IMG/VR virus record: IMGVR_UViG_3300037781_000042
Coordinates: 1-64,000 of that record
From: a virus
Taxonomy: Duplodnaviria; Caudoviricetes
Length of the DNA stretch: 64,000 nt
Reading direction: 5' to 3' (one strand)
A program made the position numbers and the translations under genes. The stretch's first letter is position 1; each line of letters begins with the position of its first letter. Under the pieces are notes generated by a model, which worked only from the letters and a program-made list of their open reading frames with translations, did not search any database and was not told the DNA's origin. Shown one piece after another: positions 17,139 through 62,691 of the stretch.

Positions 17139-17786
17139 ATGAATAAAGAATTTAAGACATATAAAGAATTTGTAAATGAATCTAACGGATTTAATTTTGA
17201 TATAAAAAAATTGAGAGATGATACTATAGAAATGTTGGAACAATCTCCTGAAGGTTTTTATGTTGATTACGCAGAAGAATTTTTTCAAACGAACGGAGAT
17301 ATTTGGAACGAGTTGCAAGAAAGTTCTACAGAGGATCCTGAAGAAGTATTTGATTTTATAGTAGATAATCATTTAGAGACTTTACAATATTTCATTGAAG
17401 CTACAATAGAAGAATATCTTTATGATTTAGAAAAATATACCAAAGATTCAAACATTATTATTTATAGAGAAATTTCATGCGACGATAAGTTTTTAGAAGA
17501 ACTAAAAGAAGGAAAGGTTGAAAAACTAGGAATTTATTGGTCTTTTGAAGAGGACGCTGCTGAAGCGCATTGGGCTAAAGCGGGACATAATAGAAAAATT
17601 TTATTTGTTGCTAAAGTAAATGGTAAATATATTGACGAAGAAGGAACTTTAACTTCATGGTTACATCCTTATACAGGAAAGGAAGAAAGAGAATTAAGAA
17701 TTATAGAAGGTTCTCCTGTTTCTTTAATTGAAGTTAAAGAAGGACAAAAGAAAATAGAATTTAAAAATAAGGAATATAGAGCTTAA
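17139..17786 (+). CDS. ADP-ribosyltransferase-like protein (R-S-E type) with a capsid-targeting-like N-terminus
   Basis: IIIYREIS (R), GIYWSF (S) and EERELRI (ExE). The likely start is ATG 17139 (MNKEFKTYKEFVNE), just after the neck gene stop. Confidence 0.55.
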   Translation: MNKEFKTYKEFVNESNGFNFDIKKLRDDTIEMLEQSPEGFYVDYAEEFFQTNGDIWNELQESSTEDPEEVFDFIVDNHLETLQYFIEATIEEYLYDLEKYTKDSNIIIYREISCDDKFLEELKEGKVEKLGIYWSFEEDAAEAHWAKAGHNRKILFVAKVNGKYIDEEGTLTSWLHPYTGKEERELRIIEGSPVSLIEVKEGQKKIEFKNKEYRA

Positions 17787-18692
17787 ATGAAAAAAGAATT
17801 TTTAGGTTACCAAGAATTTATAAATGAAGGTGGAAATGCTTTTAAGAATTTAAAAAGATTTGAATCTGATAAAAAGATGAAAATTTTTGAAAGAGTAACT
17901 GAAATAATGGAGCAAGAATTAAAGTATGATTTATCTGAATACTCTATTGTAGGAAGCTTTAATTCTAAAACAGAAGAGATAGGAGACATTGATATTGCTT
18001 TATATCCTGAAAAATCTTTTAAGTTTTCTACTTTAGATGATACTTATAATAATATAGAAAAACTTTCTAATAAAGTCGGAAATTTAAAGCATTTGAAAAT
18101 AGAAGAAGAAAGAATAAGTAAAACTTTAGGAGTACTTTCATTATCTACTAAAATTGAAAAAAGAAATTTTCAAATAGATTTAATTCCGGTTCCTTCTAAG
18201 AAATGGGGCGAATGGTCGTATCATTCTCCAGATCCTGATAAATCTACTTATAAAGGTCTTTATAGAAATGCTTTATTAGAAGCAATTGCTAAATCATTGC
18301 ATTTTGATTTAGAGTATTATGAACAAAATGAAGAGACTAAATATTTTAAAGAAGGAGAAATTAAATCTTATATGAGATATAGATATTTAAGAAATGCAGG
18401 TCTTTGGAAAGTAAGAGAAAAGAATGAAGGAACACGAGTTTTTAGATATGAAAAGATAAAAGATACTTATACTCCTGTAAGTCATGACCCAGAAAAAGTA
18501 ATAAATATATTATTAGGAAAAAAGAATTTTAAAAAATATATGACATTTGAATCTGTTTTAAATGTTATTTCTAGTAAGTCTTGGAGTAATTATGAATTAC
18601 TTCCTACTATATTAGAAAATTTTAGAATAATTATAGAAGATAGACAAGGAAATGAAATTCCTTCGATAGTTCAAAATTTAATGGAAGAATAA
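17787..18692 (+). CDS. Pol-beta-superfamily nucleotidyltransferase with a capsid-targeting-like N-terminus
   Basis: VGSFNSKTEEIGDIDIAL (hG[GS]..DxD) and a third Asp in FQIDLI. N-terminus is MKKEFLGYQEFINE. Confidence 0.65.
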   Translation: MKKEFLGYQEFINEGGNAFKNLKRFESDKKMKIFERVTEIMEQELKYDLSEYSIVGSFNSKTEEIGDIDIALYPEKSFKFSTLDDTYNNIEKLSNKVGNLKHLKIEEERISKTLGVLSLSTKIEKRNFQIDLIPVPSKKWGEWSYHSPDPDKSTYKGLYRNALLEAIAKSLHFDLEYYEQNEETKYFKEGEIKSYMRYRYLRNAGLWKVREKNEGTRVFRYEKIKDTYTPVSHDPEKVINILLGKKNFKKYMTFESVLNVISSKSWSNYELLPTILENFRIIIEDRQGNEIPSIVQNLMEE

Positions 18693-36731: not shown

Positions 36732-37334
36732 TTGAATAAATTATCAAATCCTTTAATTATTACTAAATCTCAGTCCGGAGAAAAAGCTTACGATTTACAT
36801 TCATTATTGTTTAAAGAAAGAAAAATAATGATTAATTCTGATATAGATGAAGATGTATCTCAATCAATAGTATCTCAATTATTACATTTAGATGAAGAAG
36901 ATTCAAATGAAGAAATTATTCTTTTTATAAATTCTCCTGGTGGAAGTGTTACTGACGGTTTAGCAATTTATGATACTATTCAATTTATAGATGCTCCAGT
37001 TACTACAGTATGTGTAGGTCTTGCTGCTTCAATGGCCCAAGTTTTATTATGCGCAGGAGAACCTGGAAGAAGATTTTCTTTTCCTAATTCTAGAATAATG
37101 ATGCATCAGCCTTCAGGTGGAACTTGGGGACAAGGATCGGATATAGAAATTTATCATAATGAGATGGTAAAAATAAAGGATCTACTTTATGGAATAATTC
37201 AAAAACATACTGGAAAATCTTATGAAGAAATTAAAAAACACGCAGATAGAGATTATTGGATGTCTCCTAAAGAAGCTAAAAAATATAATCTAATAGATAA
37301 AATTATTAAATCTAAAAAAGATTTATTTAGCTAA
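36732..37334 (+). CDS. clpP: ClpP protease proteolytic subunit
   Basis: INSPGGSVTDGLAIYDT, AASMA (Ser), MMHQP (His) and DRDYWMS (Asp). TTG start. Confidence 0.93.
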   Translation: MNKLSNPLIITKSQSGEKAYDLHSLLFKERKIMINSDIDEDVSQSIVSQLLHLDEEDSNEEIILFINSPGGSVTDGLAIYDTIQFIDAPVTTVCVGLAASMAQVLLCAGEPGRRFSFPNSRIMMHQPSGGTWGQGSDIEIYHNEMVKIKDLLYGIIQKHTGKSYEEIKKHADRDYWMSPKEAKKYNLIDKIIKSKKDLFS

Positions 37335-38696
37335 TTCTTCTTCTAGAACATAATAAAGAGTTTCATTTATATTTTCTTCATTTAGAAAATAATCATTATC
37401 AATAGATTTGATAGTATCGATTAAGAAACTTGAAAAGTTTGCTGTTTCTCTCAGGCCTACTAAATAAAGTAGGGCATTAGGAATACTTTCTTTTTCTTTT
37501 ATTATCATGATAGTAGAATCAAAATTCCAATCTATTTTACTATTAAAAAATCCTTCTAAATAATTTACTGTCATTTTAAATATTTCAGAATTTTTTAATT
37601 GTTGATTTAACATCCATAAATTTCTTAATATCATTTGGACAGTATCTGAATCTTGAAATGCTAATAGTTCATGCAGATGTGTTATAGTATGATCAGGAAA
37701 AAGTTCTTTAACATTTTCAGAAAGTCTTACACTGTCAACCCATTCTATCTCAAGGTCTTCATATAATCCTTCTCCATACACTTCATAATTTTCGATATAT
37801 TCTAGTATTTCATTCATAGGTATATTATCAATAGAATCATCTAAATCATGATAATTTAAAAATGATTCAAATACATTGCCTCTAGGTTTAACTATTAAAT
37901 AACCATCTTGAAATATTAAAGTACTATTTGCAGCGTATAAGAAATTATCAAGGACTGAATCATTATTAATAATTCTTTCTTTAAGTATTTTCCCTATAAC
38001 TTTTCTAGCATTTGTAAATGGAATGTCGGTAAGTTCTACTTCACTATCATATTCATTCATAAATTGGCCAGATTCAAAGTGTAACTGATATTTGTCTTCA
38101 GGATTTTCCTTGCTTATAAAAATATAAAGTGGTCCATCTTCTGTATATTCATTAAACATTGAATCATCATCTTTAGCAGCAGTACACCATCTAGTTCCTT
38201 TTCCATAATAACAGGCAGCATTATGAGTTTCTGGAACTATGACTAAAAATTCATCATCTTCATAGATAAGTTTAGCCTCATCATTTTTAATTTCTTTTTC
38301 TATGTCTCTATTTGATTTAGTTTCTGAGTCATCAAATTTAAGTACTTCTTTTGTTAATTCAGGAAGAGATTTATAATCAAAGATATTCGAAGAAAGACCT
38401 TTTTCTTTAAGTACTTTCATTCTACTTAATTTATCGAAAGATTTTAATATTTCATTAAATTTGTAAAGGTCTTCTTTTTTAACGAGTTTTTCGCTTTTCT
38501 TTCTAAGGTTTAACATCCATTTAGAATATTTTCCTATTTTTCTAACTTCTCCTTTATCATCTAAAAGAGTAGTTGGATCAGTTTTGACTATTGATAAAAA
38601 GGTTTCTTTATCAATTGAATTGTAATATTTATCATGAATTTCTAACGGAGTAGCTAATTCAAATAAAAAATCTTTAAATGGAAGAAATGTTTTCAT
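37323..38696 (-). CDS. Conserved phage protein (PcfJ-like core) with a capsid-targeting-like N-terminus
   Basis: PETHNAACYYGKGTRWCTAA..FNEY..DGPLYIFI..KYQLHF motif. N-terminus is MKTFLPFKDFLFE. Confidence 0.6.
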   Translation of the reverse strand: MKTFLPFKDFLFELATPLEIHDKYYNSIDKETFLSIVKTDPTTLLDDKGEVRKIGKYSKWMLNLRKKSEKLVKKEDLYKFNEILKSFDKLSRMKVLKEKGLSSNIFDYKSLPELTKEVLKFDDSETKSNRDIEKEIKNDEAKLIYEDDEFLVIVPETHNAACYYGKGTRWCTAAKDDDSMFNEYTEDGPLYIFISKENPEDKYQLHFESGQFMNEYDSEVELTDIPFTNARKVIGKILKERIINNDSVLDNFLYAANSTLIFQDGYLIVKPRGNVFESFLNYHDLDDSIDNIPMNEILEYIENYEVYGEGLYEDLEIEWVDSVRLSENVKELFPDHTITHLHELLAFQDSDTVQMILRNLWMLNQQLKNSEIFKMTVNYLEGFFNSKIDWNFDSTIMIIKEKESIPNALLYLVGLRETANFSSFLIDTIKSIDNDYFLNEENINETLYYVLEEELAK

Positions 38697-53284: not shown

Positions 53285-56200
53285 ATGGCAATTTTTAATA
53301 AAGCAGATCAGCTTTATAAGCATCTATTAAATAAAAAATTAACTTCTTCTAATAAAGATTATTATGAAGAGGTTACTGATTCTCGAATAGGGAATATTGC
53401 TGCTCAATATATTTGGGCAGATAATATTTCTGAAACTCCTCCTGTTTCTACAACAGCAACAATTCAAGTTTATACAGATAAAATTCTAAAAGAAGATCCT
53501 ACTGTAGATGATTCTAGAGTATGGAGTGCTGTTACAGATCATTCTATCGATCATGATTTTTCTGCTCGTTCAGATGGATCAAATCCTAGATTAGCTAATT
53601 GGATTCCTCCTCAATTTGGAGAAGATTATAGAATAGTAATTAAAGATTCATTAGGAAATGAACTTTCAAGATATACTGATTGGCTATTTGATTACGAAAC
53701 AGGTACATTAGTTTTTGCAGATACTCCTCCAGTAAATAGACCTTTTTCTGTTACAGGATATAGATACATAGGAAATTTAGGTATTACTTCTGCTACAGGA
53801 TTTACTGGCGCTCAAGGTGCTCAGGGACCACAAGGAAATCAAGGTAATCAAGGATGGCAAGGGATTCCTGGTTCTGCTACAGCAACAGGTGCTCAAGGAA
53901 ATCAAGGAAACCAGGGAGATTTTGGACCACAGGGATGGCAAGGTAACCAAGGTAACCAAGGAAACCAGGGTAACCAAGGATGGCAAGGTAATGCAGGTAC
54001 TATAGGTGCTGATGGGGTGCAAGGAAACCAGGGTAACCAAGGATGGCAAGGATTTGGTGGGGTTCCTGGTCCTACAGGTGCTCAAGGATGGCAGGGTAAT
54101 CAGGGTAACCAGGGTTGGCAAGGTTCTAAAGGAGATCAAGGTATTAGAGGTTTTCAAGGTAACCAAGGTAACCAAGGATGGCAAGGAAACCAAGGTAACC
54201 AGGGTTGGCAAGGGATTCCTGGTTCTGCTACAGCAACAGGTGCTCAAGGTAATGAAGGTCCTCAAGGTGGAATAGGTCCTCAAGGTAATCAAGGTAATCA
54301 AGGATGGCAGGGTAATCAAGGTAATCAGGGTTGGCAAGGTTCTGGTGTACAAGGCAATCAAGGTAATCAAGGTAATCAAGGATGGCAGGGTTCTGGCGTT
54401 CAAGGATCTCAAGGCAATCAAGGATGGCAGGGTAATCAAGGTAATCAAGGATGGCAAGGTTCTGGTGTACAAGGCAATCAAGGATGGCAAGGATTTAAAG
54501 GAGATAAAGGTAATCAAGGAAATAAAGGTAACCAAGGAGATTTTGGTCCTACTGGTGTACAAGGTAACCAGGGTAACCAAGGATGGCAAGGTTCTATCGG
54601 ATTTCAAGGCAACCAAGGATGGCAAGGTGAAAAAGGAGACACTGGAGATACTGGAGATCAAGGTGTGCAAGGTAACCAGGGTAACCAAGGATGGCAAGGT
54701 TCTGGTGTACAAGGATCTCAGGGTTTAAAAGGTAATCAAGGTAATCAAGGATGGCAAGGTTCTAAAGGAGATATTGGTTTACAGGGTTGGCAAGGTTCTA
54801 AAGGAGATACTGGAGATACTGGAGATCAAGGTGTACAAGGTAACCAGGGTAACCAGGGTAGAAGAGGATTCCAAGGTTTAGTTGGGAATCAGGGTAATCA
54901 AGGATGGCAAGGTAATCAAGGATGGCAAGGTGAAATAGGTCCGACTGGTTCTACGGGGGTACAAGGTAACCAGGGTAACCAGGGTAACCAAGGTTTAAAA
55001 GGAAACCAGGGTAACCAAGGATGGCAAGGTGAAATAGGTCCAACGGGTCCAACTGGAGATCAAGGTGTACAAGGGAATAAAGGGAATCAAGGGAATCAAG
55101 GTAGAAGAGGATTTCAAGGTTTAGTTGGGAATCAGGGTAACCAAGGATGGCAGGGTAATCAAGGTAACCAAGGTAACCAGGGTTGGCAAGGTTTAAAAGG
55201 AGATACTGGTGTACAAGGTAATCAAGGTAACCAAGGATGGCAAGGTTTTAAAGGAGATACTGGTGTACAAGGTACCCAAGGTAATCAAGGATGGCAAGGT
55301 GAAATAGGTCCGACTGGTTCTACGGGGGTACAAGGGTCTCAAGGTTTAAGAGGATATCAGGGTAACCAAGGATGGCAAGGTAATGCAGGAACAGATGGTA
55401 ACCAAGGTAACCAAGGAAATCAAGGTAACCAGGGTAATCAAGGATGGCAAGGTTTAATTGGTTTACAGGGTGTACAAGGAAATCAGGGTAACCAAGGTAA
55501 CCAAGGTAATGTTGGATTCCAAGGTAATCAAGGTAATCAAGGAAACCAAGGTAATCAAGGACCTTTAACTTTAGCAGGAGACAATTGGGCATATAACACT
55601 AAAACTATTTATGGTTATGGAGCACCATGTACTTATGAACCGCCATTATTAAAATTTGAAGGTTCGTTAGTAGGAGCTGAAGTTTCTTTAAAGGATGAAC
55701 ATTTTGTAGATACTGATGTTACTTTATCAGGCTCGTTGACTAAAAAACATTTTTATTACGATTTAAATTTTAAATGGAACGGAGATTCTGATAATCATTC
55801 AAACGCTTCAGATGTAGATGAAATTTACATCGGAGTATATTTTTACAACAATGATGATTCTGTATATGAATTAGTAGATTCTTATAGAGCTTCAGCAGAT
55901 GAAAATTTAGATTATTCTTTACAAACTAGAGCAGCTTTTTATCCTACAGATGATACAAAAACTTCTAGATTTAAGATAATTCTTTCTACTAGTTCAACAT
56001 TTACTACAACAAGTACTATTACACCAAATGCGAATTTAGATAAGTTTTTATTTGAATTTAATGTGTATGAAGTTGCTATTGGATCATATAGAGGATTTTC
56101 TAGTGGAGGACCTGGATTCCAAAAATATCAAGCAATTGTTGCTTCTGGTATAAATGTTCCTGAGTCAAACACTGGAGATACTTATGTTGACATGTCAGAC

Positions 56201-58813
56201 TGTTCTATTTATAAAAAAGGAAATACTTGTAAAGAAAATTCTAATGGATTTTTACTTTATAATGATAGTACTTCTACTGATGTAGAACAATATTATAGAG
56301 GATTCCAATCTTCTATTGAATTGAATACAGGAAGTTTAAAAAATGTTATAGATGGAAATACTTTAGATTATAGTCAATCTGATGATGGTTTAGATTATAC
56401 AAATAATATAATTTTAACAGAAACTTTAAGTATTGTAAACCATAAAGAAACTTCTGAAAATGATTTATTTTTATACGGGTACAATTTATTTGAAAAATTT
56501 GATGATCCTACAAATTCTGATTATCAAACAATATTAGAAAATTTAAGAGATTCTAATAATGAATTATACGTTTATTTAGATTTCTTATTATATGAAGATA
56601 CAGATAGAGTTGGAAATACTTTAACTATAGATACTCAAGAAGGGTCTAAGATTCCGCATGAACCTCTTACAGAAGATTTTGATTATGGAGTATGGTTAGT
56701 AGATAAAGATTCATATCAATTTAAAAATATGAAAAAATGGAATCGTATAGATTTAAATTCATATTTAACAGCCGAAACTTTATCAAGTACAAGTAAGACA
56801 TATAAAATTTATAATGGATCTACTAGTTATTCTACAAATACTGTTACAGATTGTTATAAAGTAACTTCTGTAATGTTGAAATATAATGCATTTACGGATG
56901 GAGGAGAACCTTTAGGAGTAGATGGTTATTGGGATGTAGTAGAAATTAATAAAGAATTAAAAGATATAAATATTTCAGCAGATTCTTATTATCCTATTAA
57001 ACCTACTAGAGATGTTCTTATAGATTCTGTATCTGCTACAGAAGAAGAATTAAATAAATTGTATACTTGGGGGTCTCCTGGAGTGTCTTTAGATACTTCT
57101 ACATTTACTGTAGAATGGGATTTCTCTAAAGATTTTATTGGATCTAATTATAACGAATTTATTTATAAAGCTAAATATTATAATTGGTCAAATTCTTCTT
57201 TTGATGAATTTACTACAGGAGGCGGATGGTCAGGTACAATAAATCGAGAAATGTATAATCCTAATACAGAATCTTGGGTAGATGTAAGTTCTGATGAATT
57301 TGATATTGATACCAATAAAGTAGATTGTGACACTGATACCTATACAAAATTAAGATATACGTGTTCAAATGGTAATGGTGCAGGAACTATTACTTTAAAT
57401 ACAATGGCCGTTGTAGTAGATTTAGGATGTATGGCAGACTGTTGTTGGGAAAAAATTGGAACACAGGATTGTGGAAGTTGTGGATGCAATGACTCCACAG
57501 ATTGTGATGAGGTTACTACAGTAGATTACGCTGGATATTTAGATGATACTTATTATAATACTCATCCTAAACCGCTTTCATTAAAATCTGTGTCTTGTGA
57601 AGATGCTCCATCTTGTTTTGAAGTTCCTTTCAGCTTTGTTGAAAATACATATTCATCTGATATTAATTATCACAACAGTGTTAGAAATTCTAAATATGGA
57701 TGGGACAAATATGATAATGACCAGATAGTAGAAATAGGATATAATGATGGATTAGGTGATTTTTGGATAACATATAAACTTAAAAAAGGGGTAACTATAT
57801 GTACTGATGGTCTTCATACAAAAACTATAGATTATGGAGATACTGTTTATACTTACGTTTCAGAAGATGGAACAACTTGGTATGATTGGGCAACCCCATC
57901 AAATAGAACTGATTTTGAAGATTGTAATGAAAAGAAAGTAAGATACATTAAGATAGAATCTGAAGGTACTTTTGATTTAGAATACATTTATTTAAATGCT
58001 AAAAATTGTGGTGATGGGTGTTGTTATTCTTCAGCTAGACCAGATAATTATCATTATGAAGATACTTACAGTGCAGTTCAAGTTTATTATATTGGGGATT
58101 CCGTAAACTATAATGATAACATTTATATTAATCAATCAGATGAACCTTTAATCGGTGTTACTCCGGGAACAGGAGATTGGTCTTATTTTGCAAATTCAGA
58201 TCCTACAGGACTAGTTGGGCCTCAAGGTAACCAAGGAGTAAATGGTTCTAATGGTAACCAGGGTAACCAAGGGAATCAGGGTTCTGGAGGAGATACTGGT
58301 AATCAAGGTAACCAAGGTAACCAGGGATTGGTTGGTGCATCTGGTGGAGGATGGGATGAAGAGGAAATAGTCACTTCTCAAGAAACTTTTACAACAGCAA
58401 CGTTAAGTACATCATCTGCGTTAGATATATCTTCCGGTTTACCTGCATCTGGAGTAGGCGAAACTTTATATGAGATAGAATTTAAATTGGCATTAGATGT
58501 TCAAGGCGCTTTAACCGGATATAAAATTGAAATAGAAGGAACACAAAATCATAATAGCGATATAACTTATTTATGTTCTGAAGGAGGTTCATTGTCAGGT
58601 AATTATGTTATCAATAGTATGACGTCTGATATATTTACAGCTACTGTACCTAACTTTACAGGAAAGTTCTTTGTTGAAGGTTCAGGTGTAATAGAAACTG
58701 CTGCTTTAGCATCTGATGTTAGAGTTCAAATAGCATGTGACGATGATACAGGTCCAAATCAAATTCAATTGAATAATGGAAGTTATTTAAGATTAAAGAA
58801 TATTTCACCTTAA
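53285..58813 (+). CDS. Giant collagen-like virion fibre protein
   Basis: 1842 aa. About 195 G-X-Y triplets (53798-55564), a long beta-rich Cys-containing region, and a short second collagen block (58208-58345). Confidence 0.85.
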   Translation: MAIFNKADQLYKHLLNKKLTSSNKDYYEEVTDSRIGNIAAQYIWADNISETPPVSTTATIQVYTDKILKEDPTVDDSRVWSAVTDHSIDHDFSARSDGSNPRLANWIPPQFGEDYRIVIKDSLGNELSRYTDWLFDYETGTLVFADTPPVNRPFSVTGYRYIGNLGITSATGFTGAQGAQGPQGNQGNQGWQGIPGSATATGAQGNQGNQGDFGPQGWQGNQGNQGNQGNQGWQGNAGTIGADGVQGNQGNQGWQGFGGVPGPTGAQGWQGNQGNQGWQGSKGDQGIRGFQGNQGNQGWQGNQGNQGWQGIPGSATATGAQGNEGPQGGIGPQGNQGNQGWQGNQGNQGWQGSGVQGNQGNQGNQGWQGSGVQGSQGNQGWQGNQGNQGWQGSGVQGNQGWQGFKGDKGNQGNKGNQGDFGPTGVQGNQGNQGWQGSIGFQGNQGWQGEKGDTGDTGDQGVQGNQGNQGWQGSGVQGSQGLKGNQGNQGWQGSKGDIGLQGWQGSKGDTGDTGDQGVQGNQGNQGRRGFQGLVGNQGNQGWQGNQGWQGEIGPTGSTGVQGNQGNQGNQGLKGNQGNQGWQGEIGPTGPTGDQGVQGNKGNQGNQGRRGFQGLVGNQGNQGWQGNQGNQGNQGWQGLKGDTGVQGNQGNQGWQGFKGDTGVQGTQGNQGWQGEIGPTGSTGVQGSQGLRGYQGNQGWQGNAGTDGNQGNQGNQGNQGNQGWQGLIGLQGVQGNQGNQGNQGNVGFQGNQGNQGNQGNQGPLTLAGDNWAYNTKTIYGYGAPCTYEPPLLKFEGSLVGAEVSLKDEHFVDTDVTLSGSLTKKHFYYDLNFKWNGDSDNHSNASDVDEIYIGVYFYNNDDSVYELVDSYRASADENLDYSLQTRAAFYPTDDTKTSRFKIILSTSSTFTTTSTITPNANLDKFLFEFNVYEVAIGSYRGFSSGGPGFQKYQAIVASGINVPESNTGDTYVDMSDCSIYKKGNTCKENSNGFLLYNDSTSTDVEQYYRGFQSSIELNTGSLKNVIDGNTLDYSQSDDGLDYTNNIILTETLSIVNHKETSENDLFLYGYNLFEKFDDPTNSDYQTILENLRDSNNELYVYLDFLLYEDTDRVGNTLTIDTQEGSKIPHEPLTEDFDYGVWLVDKDSYQFKNMKKWNRIDLNSYLTAETLSSTSKTYKIYNGSTSYSTNTVTDCYKVTSVMLKYNAFTDGGEPLGVDGYWDVVEINKELKDINISADSYYPIKPTRDVLIDSVSATEEELNKLYTWGSPGVSLDTSTFTVEWDFSKDFIGSNYNEFIYKAKYYNWSNSSFDEFTTGGGWSGTINREMYNPNTESWVDVSSDEFDIDTNKVDCDTDTYTKLRYTCSNGNGAGTITLNTMAVVVDLGCMADCCWEKIGTQDCGSCGCNDSTDCDEVTTVDYAGYLDDTYYNTHPKPLSLKSVSCEDAPSCFEVPFSFVENTYSSDINYHNSVRNSKYGWDKYDNDQIVEIGYNDGLGDFWITYKLKKGVTICTDGLHTKTIDYGDTVYTYVSEDGTTWYDWATPSNRTDFEDCNEKKVRYIKIESEGTFDLEYIYLNAKNCGDGCCYSSARPDNYHYEDTYSAVQVYYIGDSVNYNDNIYINQSDEPLIGVTPGTGDWSYFANSDPTGLVGPQGNQGVNGSNGNQGNQGNQGSGGDTGNQGNQGNQGLVGASGGGWDEEEIVTSQETFTTATLSTSSALDISSGLPASGVGETLYEIEFKLALDVQGALTGYKIEIEGTQNHNSDITYLCSEGGSLSGNYVINSMTSDIFTATVPNFTGKFFVEGSGVIETAALASDVRVQIACDDDTGPNQIQLNNGSYLRLKNISP
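53798..55564 (+). repeat. Coding tandem repeat (collagen G-X-Y block 2)
   Basis: ggtaaccaa / ggatggcaa units. Confidence 0.9.
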
Positions 58814-58894: not shown

Positions 58895-60862
58895 ATGAAA
58901 AAACCACTATTAATATTACAAAAACACGATTTTCTTATTGAAAGTACGGAGTACAATCAACAAGAAGGTACGATGATTTTAGAAGGTACTTTTGCAGTAT
59001 TTGATAAAGTAAATAATAATTCTAGAATTTATGAAGCGGCTGCTTATTTACCTCATTTGAAGTATTTGCAGGAAAAAGCAAAAAGAAGAAAATTGTATGG
59101 TGAAATAGATCATCCTGATAGATTTGATGTTGCTTTATCTAAAGCATCTCACTTAGTTGAATCTATTTGGCACGATCCTAAAACTAATACAATTAAAGGA
59201 AGAGTTAAATTATTAAAAACTAAATATGGCGATCATATTAAAGGAATTATAGAGTCTGGAGGAGTAGTAAGTATTTCATCTAGATCTGCTGGTTCTGTAA
59301 ATGAAAGTACTAGAAAAGTTGATATTAAAAGAATATTTACTTATGATTTTGTTGGTGAAGGAGGTTTTGGAAACAGTGCTGAATTAAGTTTAGTAAATGA
59401 AAGCTTTAATGTAGAAGATCCGAACGTATCTATTTACGAAGTATCTGATGAATTTATTGCTAATACTAAGGAGCCAGAAATTAAAAGTTTTATAAATGAA
59501 ATGTTAGTTGAATTAAACCCAGAAGAACAAGGGGTTTTAAATGAAACTAAATATATAGATAAAGATTCAAATAAACAAAAACAAAATACAATGAAAGAAA
59601 ATTTCGTAACCAAAGAACAGATGAAAGGTTACTCTGAAATGGTTAAAGAAAATTTTGATAATCTAAAAAATAAAGTTAACGAATTATCTAAAGGAACAAC
59701 TGATAAAGCTCTTTTAGAAAATTATAATGAAGTTAAAGCTGAAATTTCTAAGATTATTGAATATTCTGAGCATATAGCAGAGAACTTTAATAATAACGAA
59801 ACTACAGTAGAAAAGTTAAAATCTTTTGTTAATTATTTAGCAGAAAATTTAAATAAAGTAATTAATTATTCTGATTACTTATCTTCTACTATAGGAAAAG
59901 ATATTCAATCGTTAAGAGAAGAAAACGAAAAAATAATCCAGTATTCTAATTACATTGCTGAAAATGTTGAAAATAACATTAAATATTCAGAGTATTTAGC
60001 AGAAGGATTAAATGATGTTGTAGATCATAACGATTATATTGCTGAGAATGTAAATAAAAACAGACAATATTCTGAATATCTAGCTGAACACATTAATAAT
60101 AATATTGAGTATTCTGAATACGTTGCTGAAAATGTAAACAAAGCAATTCAGTATTCTGAATATTTAGCAGAAAATGTAAATAAAAATATTGAGTATTCTG
60201 AGTATGTTGCTGAGAATGTAAACAAAGCAATTGAATATTCAAATTATATTTCAGAAAATTTAGATAAATCTATTCAGTATTCTGAATATATTGCAGAGAA
60301 CGCACTACCTTCTTTACCAAATAAAGAAGTAAATGAATCTCTATCTGAAAAAATGACTTCTTTCTTAACATCAGTTGAAAAACAAAAAACTGAAATTAAC
60401 AAGAAAAAGCATTTAACATCTTTCTTGACTGAAGCTAATCAGGAAAAATTTGAAAAATTACCTGAAACTGATAAACAAAAAGTTTTAGTTGCTGTATTAG
60501 AAAATCAATGTCAAAATGAAGAAGATGTTTTAAAGGTTTGGGAACAAATTTTAACTACTCCTGAGAGAGCTAGATTAAAATTCATTTTCGAACACATGCC
60601 GGCAAGCGTAAAAGCTGGATGGGATAACTTAGATGAAGCTAAACAACATAAGCTTTTAGAGAAATCTAAATTCTTTGATTTGAGCAGCTCTATTAAAGTT
60701 AAGGATTTTTGGATGAAATCAGGATTGATTCAAAAAGAATCTCCATTAGATAAAATTAATGAGAGTCTTTCACAATCATCTTTATATTCACCATCTAATG
60801 ATTCTAAAGATACGACAAAGAAATTAGGATATTCGATCGATAGATTTAAAGATTTATTGTAA
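58895..60862 (+). CDS. gp21: Prohead protease (T4 gp21-like) fused to a scaffold/core domain (gp22-like)
   Basis: N-terminus has LEGTF....VNNNSRIY, YGEIDHPD, ASHLV, GRVKLL.T..G and SISSRSAGSV. The C-terminal helical region has 14-aa YSEY[LVI]AE repeats. Lies directly upstream of the MCP. Confidence 0.85.
   Translation: MKKPLLILQKHDFLIESTEYNQQEGTMILEGTFAVFDKVNNNSRIYEAAAYLPHLKYLQEKAKRRKLYGEIDHPDRFDVALSKASHLVESIWHDPKTNTIKGRVKLLKTKYGDHIKGIIESGGVVSISSRSAGSVNESTRKVDIKRIFTYDFVGEGGFGNSAELSLVNESFNVEDPNVSIYEVSDEFIANTKEPEIKSFINEMLVELNPEEQGVLNETKYIDKDSNKQKQNTMKENFVTKEQMKGYSEMVKENFDNLKNKVNELSKGTTDKALLENYNEVKAEISKIIEYSEHIAENFNNNETTVEKLKSFVNYLAENLNKVINYSDYLSSTIGKDIQSLREENEKIIQYSNYIAENVENNIKYSEYLAEGLNDVVDHNDYIAENVNKNRQYSEYLAEHINNNIEYSEYVAENVNKAIQYSEYLAENVNKNIEYSEYVAENVNKAIEYSNYISENLDKSIQYSEYIAENALPSLPNKEVNESLSEKMTSFLTSVEKQKTEINKKKHLTSFLTEANQEKFEKLPETDKQKVLVAVLENQCQNEEDVLKVWEQILTTPERARLKFIFEHMPASVKAGWDNLDEAKQHKLLEKSKFFDLSSSIKVKDFWMKSGLIQKESPLDKINESLSQSSLYSPSNDSKDTTKKLGYSIDRFKDLL
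59550..59558 (+). promoter_or_regulatory. Internal late promoter for a scaffold-only product
   Basis: Exact AATATATAG inside the protease gene, 33 nt before the in-frame ATG 59591, which has an A-rich leader. Confidence 0.55.
59939..60316 (+). repeat. Nine tandem 42-nt (14-aa) coding repeats in the scaffold
   Basis: For example EYSEYVAENVNKAI and QYSEYLAENVNKNI. Confidence 0.85.
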
Positions 60863-60918: not shown

Positions 60919-62691
60919 ATGAGAGATTATGGAATAGAACTTTCTCCACTATTAGAGAAAGAAGTTTTCGACCAATGGGCTCCAGTACTTAAGGAGACTG
61001 ATATGGTTAACGAAAACGTAGACGCGGAAAGATTGTCTTTGATGACAAAGATTGCGCACAATCAAGCATTAGCTATGAACGAGGCTGATGGCGGATTACC
61101 AAATAATGCAAATTTAGTTGGTATGGGCAACCCTTCTTTTGGTACTACTTTAGGTGGTCAAAATTCATTTGTAACTGGTGATACTGGTTCTGGTGATAAA
61201 TGGGGTTCTCCTTTCGCTATTGCAATGCAAGTAGCTGCTAAGACTGTTGGTTTTGACATTGTAAATACTATCCCGATTTCACAATCTGCTGGTATGATTC
61301 ATTATGTTGATTACTTATATGCAGACGGTAAATTAGATGGTGTTGGAACTGAAGCTCCTACATTATTCAAAATTAATGTAACAGATTTTAGTTCTTTCAG
61401 TGCTGCTGAAGGAGATAAATTCTTTGGTACTTCAACTGGTACAACAGCAATTGCTGCTACTGGTGATGCTACTGGTAATGCTGCTTATTTAGAGTATGTT
61501 GGTCCTTCAAGAAAAACTGGTTACCCAATTTTTAAATTGATTTCAACGGGTACTTTTGAAAATGATGACTATACTAAAACTGATACTTTAACATTAGCTC
61601 AAATTTTTGATGGTGATGCTGGTATGGTTGCTGCAGCTAACGAAGATGAAGGAACAAACAGTTTAACTGTTTCAACTCCTAAAGCTGTTACTGCTTCTGC
61701 TGAATATGTAGTTGCAATGGAAGATAACGTTTATGGTTATGCTAACGGTGCTGGAGGCCAAGCAGGTGTTCAGTATTCAGGCAACTGGATGGACGGTCTT
61801 AACTTAAATGAAGCTGCAAGAAGAGGCGAAGGTGAGTCTGATGACTATAAAGACATGGGAATGAGAGTAACTTCTAAGTATATTGAATGTGGTACTTTCA
61901 AAGTATCTATCTCAGTTACTCAGGAGCAATTACAAGATATGAAGAGAAACTTTGGTTACGACATCGTATCTAAAGCTCAAAACGCTCTTGTAAACGAAAC
62001 TTCTCAATCAATTAACAGAAATATCATTTCTAGAGCTTTTGCTTTAGGTTGGACTAACCACTTGAACAGTAATGTTGCTGAAGGTGTTAACTTTAACTTA
62101 GCATTAGATCCAACTTATACAACTGCTAACGTAAATGCAACGTATAAGAAAAATGATAACACTAATGGTTCATTAGTAATTCCTGTATTTGGTACTTACT
62201 CTTCAGCTTCAGCATCAGCTGAAACTCAAGATTCTAACATCAAGAGAATTGTTAACAGAATAATCCAAGTTTCTAACTTCATTGCTCACAGAGGTAGATT
62301 AGGTGGAGCTACTGGTATTGTAACTAATGGTCAAGTTGCTGCGGCACTTCAATCAGTTGCTAATTATTCAGCTGCATCTTTTGATAATAAACTTGGTACT
62401 CCAGGTTCATTATACCCTGCAGGTTCAATCTTAGGAATGACTATTTATGTTGATCCTAATATGAAATGGAATGACAACAGAGTTTGTGTATTCAGAAAAG
62501 GTACTAATGATGATCCAGGACTTAAGTTTTTACCATATGTCCTTGCTGAGAGCGTTTCAGTTATTAACCCTAATACTGCTGCTCCAAGATTGTTTGTAAT
62601 GTCAAGATATGCATTAACTGAGTATGGTCAACATCCAGAAATGCAATATGTAACATTCTATATCAAAGCAGGTACTAACGGTTTAGGTTAA
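60919..62691 (+). CDS. gp23: Major capsid protein (T4 gp23-like)
   Basis: QWAPVL, MNE/A probable maturation site, TIPISQSAGMI, SVTQEQLQDMKRNFGYD, EINR-like SINRNII, GMTIYVDP and GLKFLPYV..SRYAL. Confidence 0.9.
   Translation: MRDYGIELSPLLEKEVFDQWAPVLKETDMVNENVDAERLSLMTKIAHNQALAMNEADGGLPNNANLVGMGNPSFGTTLGGQNSFVTGDTGSGDKWGSPFAIAMQVAAKTVGFDIVNTIPISQSAGMIHYVDYLYADGKLDGVGTEAPTLFKINVTDFSSFSAAEGDKFFGTSTGTTAIAATGDATGNAAYLEYVGPSRKTGYPIFKLISTGTFENDDYTKTDTLTLAQIFDGDAGMVAAANEDEGTNSLTVSTPKAVTASAEYVVAMEDNVYGYANGAGGQAGVQYSGNWMDGLNLNEAARRGEGESDDYKDMGMRVTSKYIECGTFKVSISVTQEQLQDMKRNFGYDIVSKAQNALVNETSQSINRNIISRAFALGWTNHLNSNVAEGVNFNLALDPTYTTANVNATYKKNDNTNGSLVIPVFGTYSSASASAETQDSNIKRIVNRIIQVSNFIAHRGRLGGATGIVTNGQVAAALQSVANYSAASFDNKLGTPGSLYPAGSILGMTIYVDPNMKWNDNRVCVFRKGTNDDPGLKFLPYVLAESVSVINPNTAAPRLFVMSRYALTEYGQHPEMQYVTFYIKAGTNGLG

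Follow-up and report, generated by a model that had tools for sequence, protein, structure and literature searches.

Does the scaffold of a large phage head carry, in its own sequence, the address by which other proteins are brought into that head? The question is raised by a gene at 58895–60862 (+) of a jumbo phage, in a 64,000-nucleotide window of a virus assigned to the Caudoviricetes (positions 1–64,000 of IMG/VR record IMGVR_UViG_3300037781_000042); the window covers the opening 64 kb of one contig of 211,581 bp with 27% GC. The 655-residue product joins a prohead protease to a head scaffold whose long central helix is built from a periodic 14-residue repeat. An earlier note on the stretch 59753–60316, which corresponds to residues 287–474 of this open reading frame (ORF), had proposed that the scaffold is a polymer of a capsid-targeting peptide and that the tags on cargo proteins mimic single repeat units. 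We find that repeat and tags have a four-position signature in common and that the mimicry claim goes too far. Docking of the tags on the scaffold rod could account for the signature and is weighed below against its alternatives.

A prohead protease and a scaffold in one polypeptide

The fusion protein consists of an N-terminal protease, a linker, an alpha-helix of about 200 residues containing the repeats and a C-terminal helical domain. The protease domain comprises residues ~26–182 (58970–59440, +). Pfam Peptidase_S77 (PF03420) matches residues 26–140 with 53.9 bits against a cut-off of 27, a profile search against the PDB returns 5jbl at E 3e-5, and BLASTP aligns the fusion protein with T4 gp21 at 29% identity (E 2e-15), placing its DHP and SSR motifs opposite the NHP and SSR of gp21. 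His73 and Ser129, located in D72-H73-P74 and S128-S129-R130, are invariant in an alignment of 37 homologues. The AlphaFold2 (AF2) model of the domain has a predicted local distance difference test (pLDDT) score of 80–93, and Foldseek matches this model to T4 gp21 (5JBL; E 5e-8, template modelling score 0.70 on the target) and then to herpesvirus proteases. By profile, fold and catalytic motif, the N-terminal domain is a Peptidase S77 of the T4 gp21 type.

Two candidate cut sites flank the protease domain. T4 gp21 loses nine N-terminal residues by a cut at LIE-9 (PMC9958956; PMC9026906), and by analogy DFLIE↓S (residues 12–16; 58928–58942, +; arrows mark cuts or candidate cuts) is probably the N-terminal autocleavage site of the fusion protease. 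In the linker behind the domain, IKSFINE↓M (residues 196–202; 59480–59500, +) is the fusion protein's best BLOSUM match to the core of the cargo tags described below, scoring 25 versus 20–22 for the repeat units. Judged from its sequence, a cut here would likely part the protease from the scaffold.

The remainder of the protein has the properties expected of a gp22-type scaffold: protease, scaffold and capsid gene follow one another in this order, the protein is helical and [LI]-x-E sites are numerous. The next gene downstream encodes the major capsid protein of the gp23 family (60919–62691, +; Pfam Gp23, E 5e-30; PHROG 138 and 28442). Its likely maturation site, AMNE↓ADGG, contains no aromatic residues, so that the protease seems not to require them. 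The C-terminal helical scaffold domain (residues ~482–610; 60338–60724, +) is modelled by AF2 with a pLDDT of about 80–87, possesses conserved columns at P569, F605 and W606 in the homologue alignment and is kept even in the fusion protein of Lak phage, which is without repeats. The fusion protein therefore combines in one chain what T4 divides between the prohead protease gp21 and the scaffold core protein gp22, in line with the earlier note's reading of the repeats as part of a scaffold. PHROG 207 'head maturation protease' spans residues 16–522 of the fusion protein, indicating that protease-scaffold fusions are already present in this family.

A strictly periodic 14-residue repeat in the scaffold helix

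The repeat region comprises twelve units of 14 residues (residues 283–468; 59741–60298, +). Nine of these stand in uninterrupted tandem (residues 343–468; 59921–60298, +), with motif starts spaced by exactly 14 residues at residues 350, 364, 378, 392, 406, 420, 434, 448 and 462, and each ends in [LIV]-[AS]-E. Three degenerate units lie upstream, with motifs at residues 290, 311 and 325. At the DNA level, Tandem Repeats Finder detects an array with a period of 42/84 nt at 60039–60300 (71–80% matches). The unit positions bear out the nine tandem repeats and three degenerate upstream copies counted in the earlier note. Its statement that each unit contains YSEY[LVI]AE holds strictly for six of the twelve, the others reading YSNYIAE, HNDYIAE, YSNYISE, YSEHIAE, FVNYLAE and YSDYLSS. 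Its terminal [ILV]-x-E is found in all units but one, the exception being the degenerate unit at residues 318–331 (YSDYLSS), which has no terminal Glu. These deviations aside, each of the units displays an aromatic patch, Tyr-x-x-Tyr-[LIV], and directly behind it a gp21-type cut site, A-E↓N.

In the AF2 model, secondary structure assignment with DSSP yields a single unbroken helix at residues 270–470 that holds the repeats; its low pLDDT is what one would expect of a rod modelled alone. The 14-residue unit equals two heptads. The repeat helix contains 13 [LI]-x-E sites, one per 14 residues in the tandem part, and since each unit ends in a gp21-type site, cutting there would yield 14-mers, with nine predicted from the tandem units. 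Sites of the form [LIVM]-x-E are not enriched in the repeat helix, which has 6.9 per 100 residues against 5.4–7.0 across the four segments of the fusion protein. The special feature of its cut sites is their regular spacing, not their density.

To place the repeat in its family, we searched 5.8 billion proteins and obtained at least 3,579 homologues comparable in length to the fusion protein. Among the best 120 of these, the number of motif copies per protein has a median of 14 (range 4–17), 115 carry at least eight copies, and successive motifs lie exactly 14 residues apart in 1,392 of about 1,480 cases. The family logo, built from 485 unique units, reads N-[LV]-[DN]-K-x-I-x-Y-S-E-Y-[LIV]-A-E, with Tyr conserved at 94% at both aromatic positions, Ala at 81% and the Glu of the cut site (P1) at 97%. 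The repeat is far beyond chance, and the conservation of copy number, 14-residue spacing and Tyr and Glu residues points to strong selection on each unit, more than helix formation alone would call for. We conclude that the repeat is of ancient origin and strongly selected. It is not covered by any Pfam family; matches of LTI65_PGEED, DUF7603, FERM_F2 and PSCyt2 in the homologues were rejected as short repeat-driven artefacts.

The nearest database phages are 462–735-kb 'uncultured phage' genomes (LR756500–504 and LR745206) with 30–38% identity. An IMG/VR search with the single fusion protein returned no close relatives, and neither the database phages nor the IMG/VR matches included a cultured member of the repeat-bearing clade. 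The scaffolds of the virus studied here, LR756501, LR756504 and LR745206 contain YSEY[LI]AE-type units, and that of LR756500 contains a degraded version. One further, isolated match to the strict repeat core, a DNA-pattern match reading YTEYLAE, is present in LR745206.1 at 603307–603327 (-), far from the scaffold gene.

T4 gp21 and gp22 are among the closest known counterparts. The protease is a clear gp21 homologue and the order of protease, scaffold and capsid gene is the same, but T4 employs two proteins where one polypeptide is found here. gp22 is likewise a helical scaffold with many [LI]-x-E sites and is broken down to small peptides, as is expected of the scaffold part of the fusion protein; it has no tandem repeat, in contrast to the strictly periodic array of the fusion protein. 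A family alignment with hhalign against gp22 is weak (E 0.069, probability 0.8%), a lead to homology at most, and pairs the gp22 segment AYINYV with the last repeat and the C-terminal region that follows it. T4 gp22 (gene 22, NC_000866 104117–104926) starts with MLKEQLIAE, which has an end like that of the T4 capsid targeting sequence (CTS), and finishes in ...SRF, compared with ...RFxx in the fusion family. Within gp22, KEWLAEN is identical in five of six residues to EYLAEN of the repeat, and AYINYVQRE resembles YSNYISEN. On sequence grounds, these two segments and the termini may be vestiges of the repeat unit, each kept in a single copy.

N-terminal cargo tags and their likeness to the repeat

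A scan of the whole contig identified the leader MNKEFKTYKEF[LIV]NE, or close variants of it, at the N-terminus of nine ORFs plus one weaker case. In the window, tagged ORFs start at 17139 (+) and 17787 (+), with the weaker one at 38696 (-); beyond the window they start at 144956 (+), 149659 (-), 151732 (-), 154102 (-), 162367 (+), 170179 (+) and 206262 (-). The first tagged cargo gene (17139–17786, +) carries MNKEFKTYKEFVNE↓S at 17139–17180 and belongs to the largest cluster obtained when all candidate N-termini were grouped without reference to a motif. The second (17787–18692, +) carries MKKEFLGYQEFINE↓G at 17787–17828, and its product gives a weak signal for a Pol-beta-type nucleotidyltransferase (Pfam DNA_pol_B_palm, E 0.0017, below the cut-off). 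The cargo tags YKEFVNE and YQEFINE cited in the earlier note are thus real and N-terminal. The gene with the weaker tag-like N-terminus, MKTFLPFKDFLFE↓L (37323–38696, -), lies outside the strict motif-free cluster.

Motif-free clustering was applied to the genome under study and to its relatives. In the former, the tag set forms the largest N-terminal cluster, with 8 ORFs or 10 counting two looser ones. The tagged proteins include four paralogues, most are leucine-rich-repeat (LRR) proteins, and one gives the nucleotidyltransferase signal; overall, the 14-residue tag is found on at least nine ORFs of at least five unrelated types. The relatives have leaders of their own. The largest cluster has about 40 members in LR756500 (whole genome; MKYIKEYEEF[LIV]NE), at least 27 in LR756501 (first 320 kb; MIKKFxxF[LIV]NE), 32 in LR756504 (first 400 kb; MKY[LI]Kx[FY]xx[FY][LIV]NE) and 56 in LR745206 (first 400 kb; MKYLKxFNE), the same stretch of LR745206 containing a further cluster of 14 (MIKK[YFW]NQF[IL]NE). 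In the 462-kb phage LR756500.1, the scaffold ends in ...KMKYYEEEMKRRFNK, resembling the MKYIKEYEEF of its own tag, and the capsid protein starts with MIKLINE↓A, a tag-like N-terminus. A second leader family, MKKE[NQ][RK]I[VI]ESF..., is present outside the window on five ORFs of the contig, at 133930 (+), 138561 (+), 165196 (+), 204255 (-) and 209346 (-); it holds an I-V-E↓S site and may represent a second class of cleavable head-targeting propeptide.

The tags conform to the T4-type CTS, a 10–19-residue N-terminal peptide found on unrelated proteins and ending in [LI]-x-E. In the T4 record, ipII and ipIII begin with MKTYQEFIAE, in agreement with the T4 tag core YQEFIAE given in the earlier note, and ipI begins with MKTFKEF.... 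The tags of the virus studied here and the T4 CTS have KTY[KQ]EF[IV]xE in common. In the present clade a genome stretch can hold up to about 70 tagged genes, versus a handful in T4.

When aligned at the P1 Glu, the repeat reads Y(P7)-S-E-Y(P4)-[LIV](P3)-A-E and the tag Y(P7)-[KQT]-E-F(P4)-[LIV](P3)-N-E. The common signature consists of an aromatic P7, an aromatic P4, an aliphatic P3 and a Glu at P1. All 67 pattern-defined tags possess Y/F at P7 and F/Y at P4; the pattern itself demands an aromatic residue, and the motif-free clusters agree with this result. Comparison of the 7-residue tag core with the repeat core gives BLOSUM62 scores of 20–22, a level attained by only 3–8 of every 10,000 proteome windows, several of those being the tags themselves. 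Suppressor analysis of the T4 CTS assigned targeting to residues 4 and 7 (Y, F) and processing to residues 8 and 10 (I, E), the E10D change blocked cutting and kept targeting, and gp21 follows the cleavage rule [LI]-x-E (PMC9026906). The four positions common to repeat and tag are those mapped in the T4 CTS for targeting and processing.

Tags and protease-scaffold fusions are also found in phages that lack the repeat. Chryseobacterium phage MA9V-2 gp209, Tenacibaculum phage pT24 gp140 and the corresponding protein of Prevotella phage Lak-A1 resemble the fusion protein in having an S77-type protease fused to a long scaffold beside the capsid gene and many [LI]-N-E↓S sites, and MA9V-2 and Lak also have tagged genes, but none possesses the 14-residue YSEYLAE array. 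In MA9V-2 (OR513085.1 166979–172539), which is cultured, the protease is fused to a 1,208-residue scaffold with more than 15 [LIF]-[IL]-N-E↓[SA] sites and no 14-residue repeat. Two small neighbouring genes start with MKTFTYFINE and MKNFFSFINE, and the propeptide of the capsid protein holds WSEFINE↓A. MA9V-2 would lend itself to tests of tag function. In Lak-A1 (MK250016.1, about 187–190 kb), reading TAG as Gln yields a 595-residue frame with the protease fused to a scaffold that has an Asp/Glu/Ser/Lys-rich low-complexity stretch in place of the repeats; the recurrent Lak-A1 leader MNKNIKKLLESLFDD, found on 9 ORFs in 400 kb, has no aromatic residues at P7 and P4. Sphingomonas phage PAU (JQ362498.1 110719–113735) has a separate protease and an acidic scaffold, and the products of five neighbouring genes, gp149, gp150, gp152, gp153 and gp154, start with the T4-CTS-like MKT[LI]xQLYE[AS/D]. 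Given its tag-like leader, gp152, annotated as 'scaffolding', looks like tagged cargo. The acidic coiled-coil protein gp155, with one copy of EELYEA, has the appearance of the actual PAU scaffold. Across these phages the tag end tracks the site preference of the protease, with INE↓S/A in MA9V-2, L-x-E↓A/S in PAU and [LIV]NE in the virus studied here.

Possible functions of the repeat in head assembly

We propose that the scaffold rods would bundle to form the procapsid core. After assembly of the shell, the protease domain would free itself by its own cleavage, and the rod would be diced into about nine to eleven acidic 14-mers, nine of them from the tandem part, that leave the head like gp22 fragments. 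T4 gp22 is degraded to small peptides, which exit the head (PMC9958956). This part of the proposal, comprising the fusion architecture, rod bundling, self-release and dicing, is in our view very probable. In a further step, the N-terminal tags would form short amphipathic helices that pack on the periodic Tyr patches of the rod, thus joining the core, and would later be released by the same type of cut as the rod. The tag would then be a relative and not a copy of the repeat core, pairing with the rod as a heterotypic partner that has Phe and Asn in place of the rod's Tyr and Ala. As a polyvalent docking rail, the rod would suit phages that load dozens of different proteins. In T4, internal proteins join the core through the CTS (PMC5694885). 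Docking is favoured by the aromatic residues, which determine targeting in T4, show the strongest conservation within the repeat and are missing from the likely capsid site. Judged from these sequence features, the whole proposal including tag docking is nearly, but not quite, as probable as its opposite. A broader version, in which the Tyr-x-x-Tyr-[LIV] patches are the receptor for T4-type CTS, the rod is a self-destructing loading rail, gp22 retains single-copy remnants and T4-like targeting is explained in general, appears rather unlikely.

Several observations weigh against a direct tie between tag and repeat. Position P4 of the repeats is Tyr in 1544 cases, His in 52 and Phe in 6 (0.4% Phe), compared with 57 Phe and 10 Tyr in the tags, and P2 is Ala in repeats and Asn in tags. 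Outside the 7-residue core there is no similarity: the seven residues upstream are unrelated, and tag and repeat compared as full 14-mers do not match significantly (background 0.2–1.6%). Tag length equals unit length (14 residues) in this genome only, the tags of the relatives being 9–13 residues long. When a strict 14-column repeat profile derived from the 485 unique units was run on the virus's own proteome, no tag appeared in the top 30, indicating that tags are not literal repeat units. The tag as an interchangeable repeat unit is rejected by the P4 and P2 differences, the profile scan and the unrelated upstream residues. Of the match between repeat core and tags put forward in the earlier note, the pattern aromatic-x-x-aromatic-aliphatic-x-Glu stands, P4 and P2 differ consistently, and the description of tags as single scaffold-repeat mimics is too strong. 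Nor do tag and repeat co-vary across related phages as that note had envisaged: the tags differ among the five repeat-bearing genomes (MNKEFKTYKEFINE, MKYIKEYEEFLNE, MIKKFxxFINE, MKYLKxFNE) while the repeat core stays near-constant as YSEY[LI]AE, and MKYLKxFNE, the most frequent tag in LR745206, is a poor fit to the repeat core. The nine genomes compared show no joint gain or loss of aromatic tags and repeat. T4, MA9V-2 and PAU have comparable tags and scaffolds without such a repeat, which is consequently no general requirement for tag function. Finally, hydrophobic residues at P7, P4 and P3 are also present at the maturation sites of T4 gp23, cut after residue 65 (FGSFLTE↓A), and gp24, cut after residue 10 (INELLRE↓S) (PMC9958956).

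These observations would also fit an explanation by shared constraints only, with both elements being amphipathic helices that end in a cut site of the same protease. The tags would then dock elsewhere, with the C-terminal scaffold domain, the capsid protein (its inner face or N-terminal arm) and the protease domain as candidates. Such an explanation accommodates the occurrence of tags in T4, where they are functional, and in MA9V-2, PAU and Lak in the absence of any YSEYLAE repeat, the dependence of the tag end on each protease's site preference, the hydrophobic residues at the gp23 and gp24 sites, the consistent F/Y and N/A differences and the lack of co-variation. It also offers a candidate dock in the C-terminal domain, the part conserved in all fusions including that of Lak. 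The protease domain, present once per scaffold chain here, would be another, but the T4 protease, at about 55–100 copies, is too scarce to hold about 1,000 internal proteins (PMC9958956; PMC5694885). Shared constraints sit poorly with the finding that the CTS aromatics of T4 matter for targeting and not for cutting (PMC9026906) and with the likely capsid-protein site of this phage, which is without aromatics. The two Tyr residues, as the most conserved residues of the repeat (94%), are likewise not explained by a cut site alone. We regard this explanation, the main alternative to docking on the rod, as possible, though on the unlikely side.

The repeat could alternatively serve only scaffold self-assembly, length setting and self-destruction, with the tag likeness being a coincidence in a Glu-, Tyr- and Asn-rich low-GC proteome. 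The 14-mer comparison, which does not rise above background, and the abundance of [LIVM]-x-E in all four segments of the fusion protein are consistent with coincidence, but the rarity of the 7-mer core match and its position on exactly the four T4-relevant residues, in the one protein expected to form the core, render coincidence improbable. Lastly, the N-terminal leaders might not be capsid-loading tags at all and instead represent, for example, a translation, localisation or regulation signal, in which case the comparison with the scaffold would be moot. Packaging in this uncultured clade is indeed deduced solely from likeness to T4. Against this, the leaders have KTY[KQ]EF[IV][NA]E in common with the experimentally defined T4 CTS (PMC9026906), end in the site of the protease, stand on unrelated proteins (LRR proteins, the nucleotidyltransferase-like protein and others) and are found only in phages with gp21-type proteases. 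We consider a function unconnected with capsid loading very improbable.

Returning to docking on the rod, several known systems display parts of the proposed arrangement. The cargo tags resemble the T4 CTS of IPI, IPII and IPIII in being N-terminal on unrelated proteins with a gp21-type end, whereas the repeat differs from the CTS in being internal, polymeric and part of the scaffold, with Tyr/Ala where the tags have Phe/Asn. In herpesvirus UL26/UL26.5, lambda C/Nu3 and P2 gpO, a common reading frame encodes protease and scaffold, and the latter is cleared by that same protease; in the Foldseek comparison, the protease described here also matches herpesvirus assemblin in fold. We know of no periodic tag-like repeat in the herpesvirus, lambda or P2 scaffolds, and of no cargo family with matching N-terminal tags in these systems. 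Encapsulin cargo-loading peptides are short terminal addresses that direct unrelated proteins into an HK97-fold shell; they bind the shell protein directly and stay uncut. They represent a functional analogy only, the proposed receptor in the present case being a removable scaffold and the tag being cleaved.

Directly upstream of the protease-scaffold gene, an ORF at 53285–58813 (+) encodes a 1,842-residue protein, probably a fibre or decoration protein of the virion, that combines very extended collagen-like G-x-y tracts (GNQGNQGWQG...; 12 stretches matching Pfam Collagen, E 8e-88) with a sizeable middle domain of non-collagen sequence.

Fusion of protease and scaffold is already known in principle, and the CTS is known in T-even phages. 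In the literature searched, coverage of which was incomplete, we found no published description of a strictly periodic CTS-like heptad scaffold and no report of tens of CTS-type tags per huge-phage genome. The T4 capsid targeting sequence was reportedly defined in 1996. A 2023 review describes the mechanism of CTS localisation as 'mysterious' and the core structure as 'unresolved' (PMC9958956). The clade described here is very large and uncultured, with at least 3,579 scaffold homologues, a tag-like heptad that recurs at least twelve times in a row on the scaffold and tens of tagged genes per genome. It replaces the vague notion that the tag has affinity for the core with a specific hypothesis testable by mutation, in which an aromatic patch on the rod, an aromatic pair on the tag and one protease site that frees both work together. 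Should docking prove false, the repeat would still represent a clean example of a scaffold built for dicing into uniform 14-mers by its own fused protease. If docking is true, it would provide a design rule by which large capsids could be filled with foreign proteins, and the injected-protein repertoires of huge phages would become easier to identify from sequence alone.

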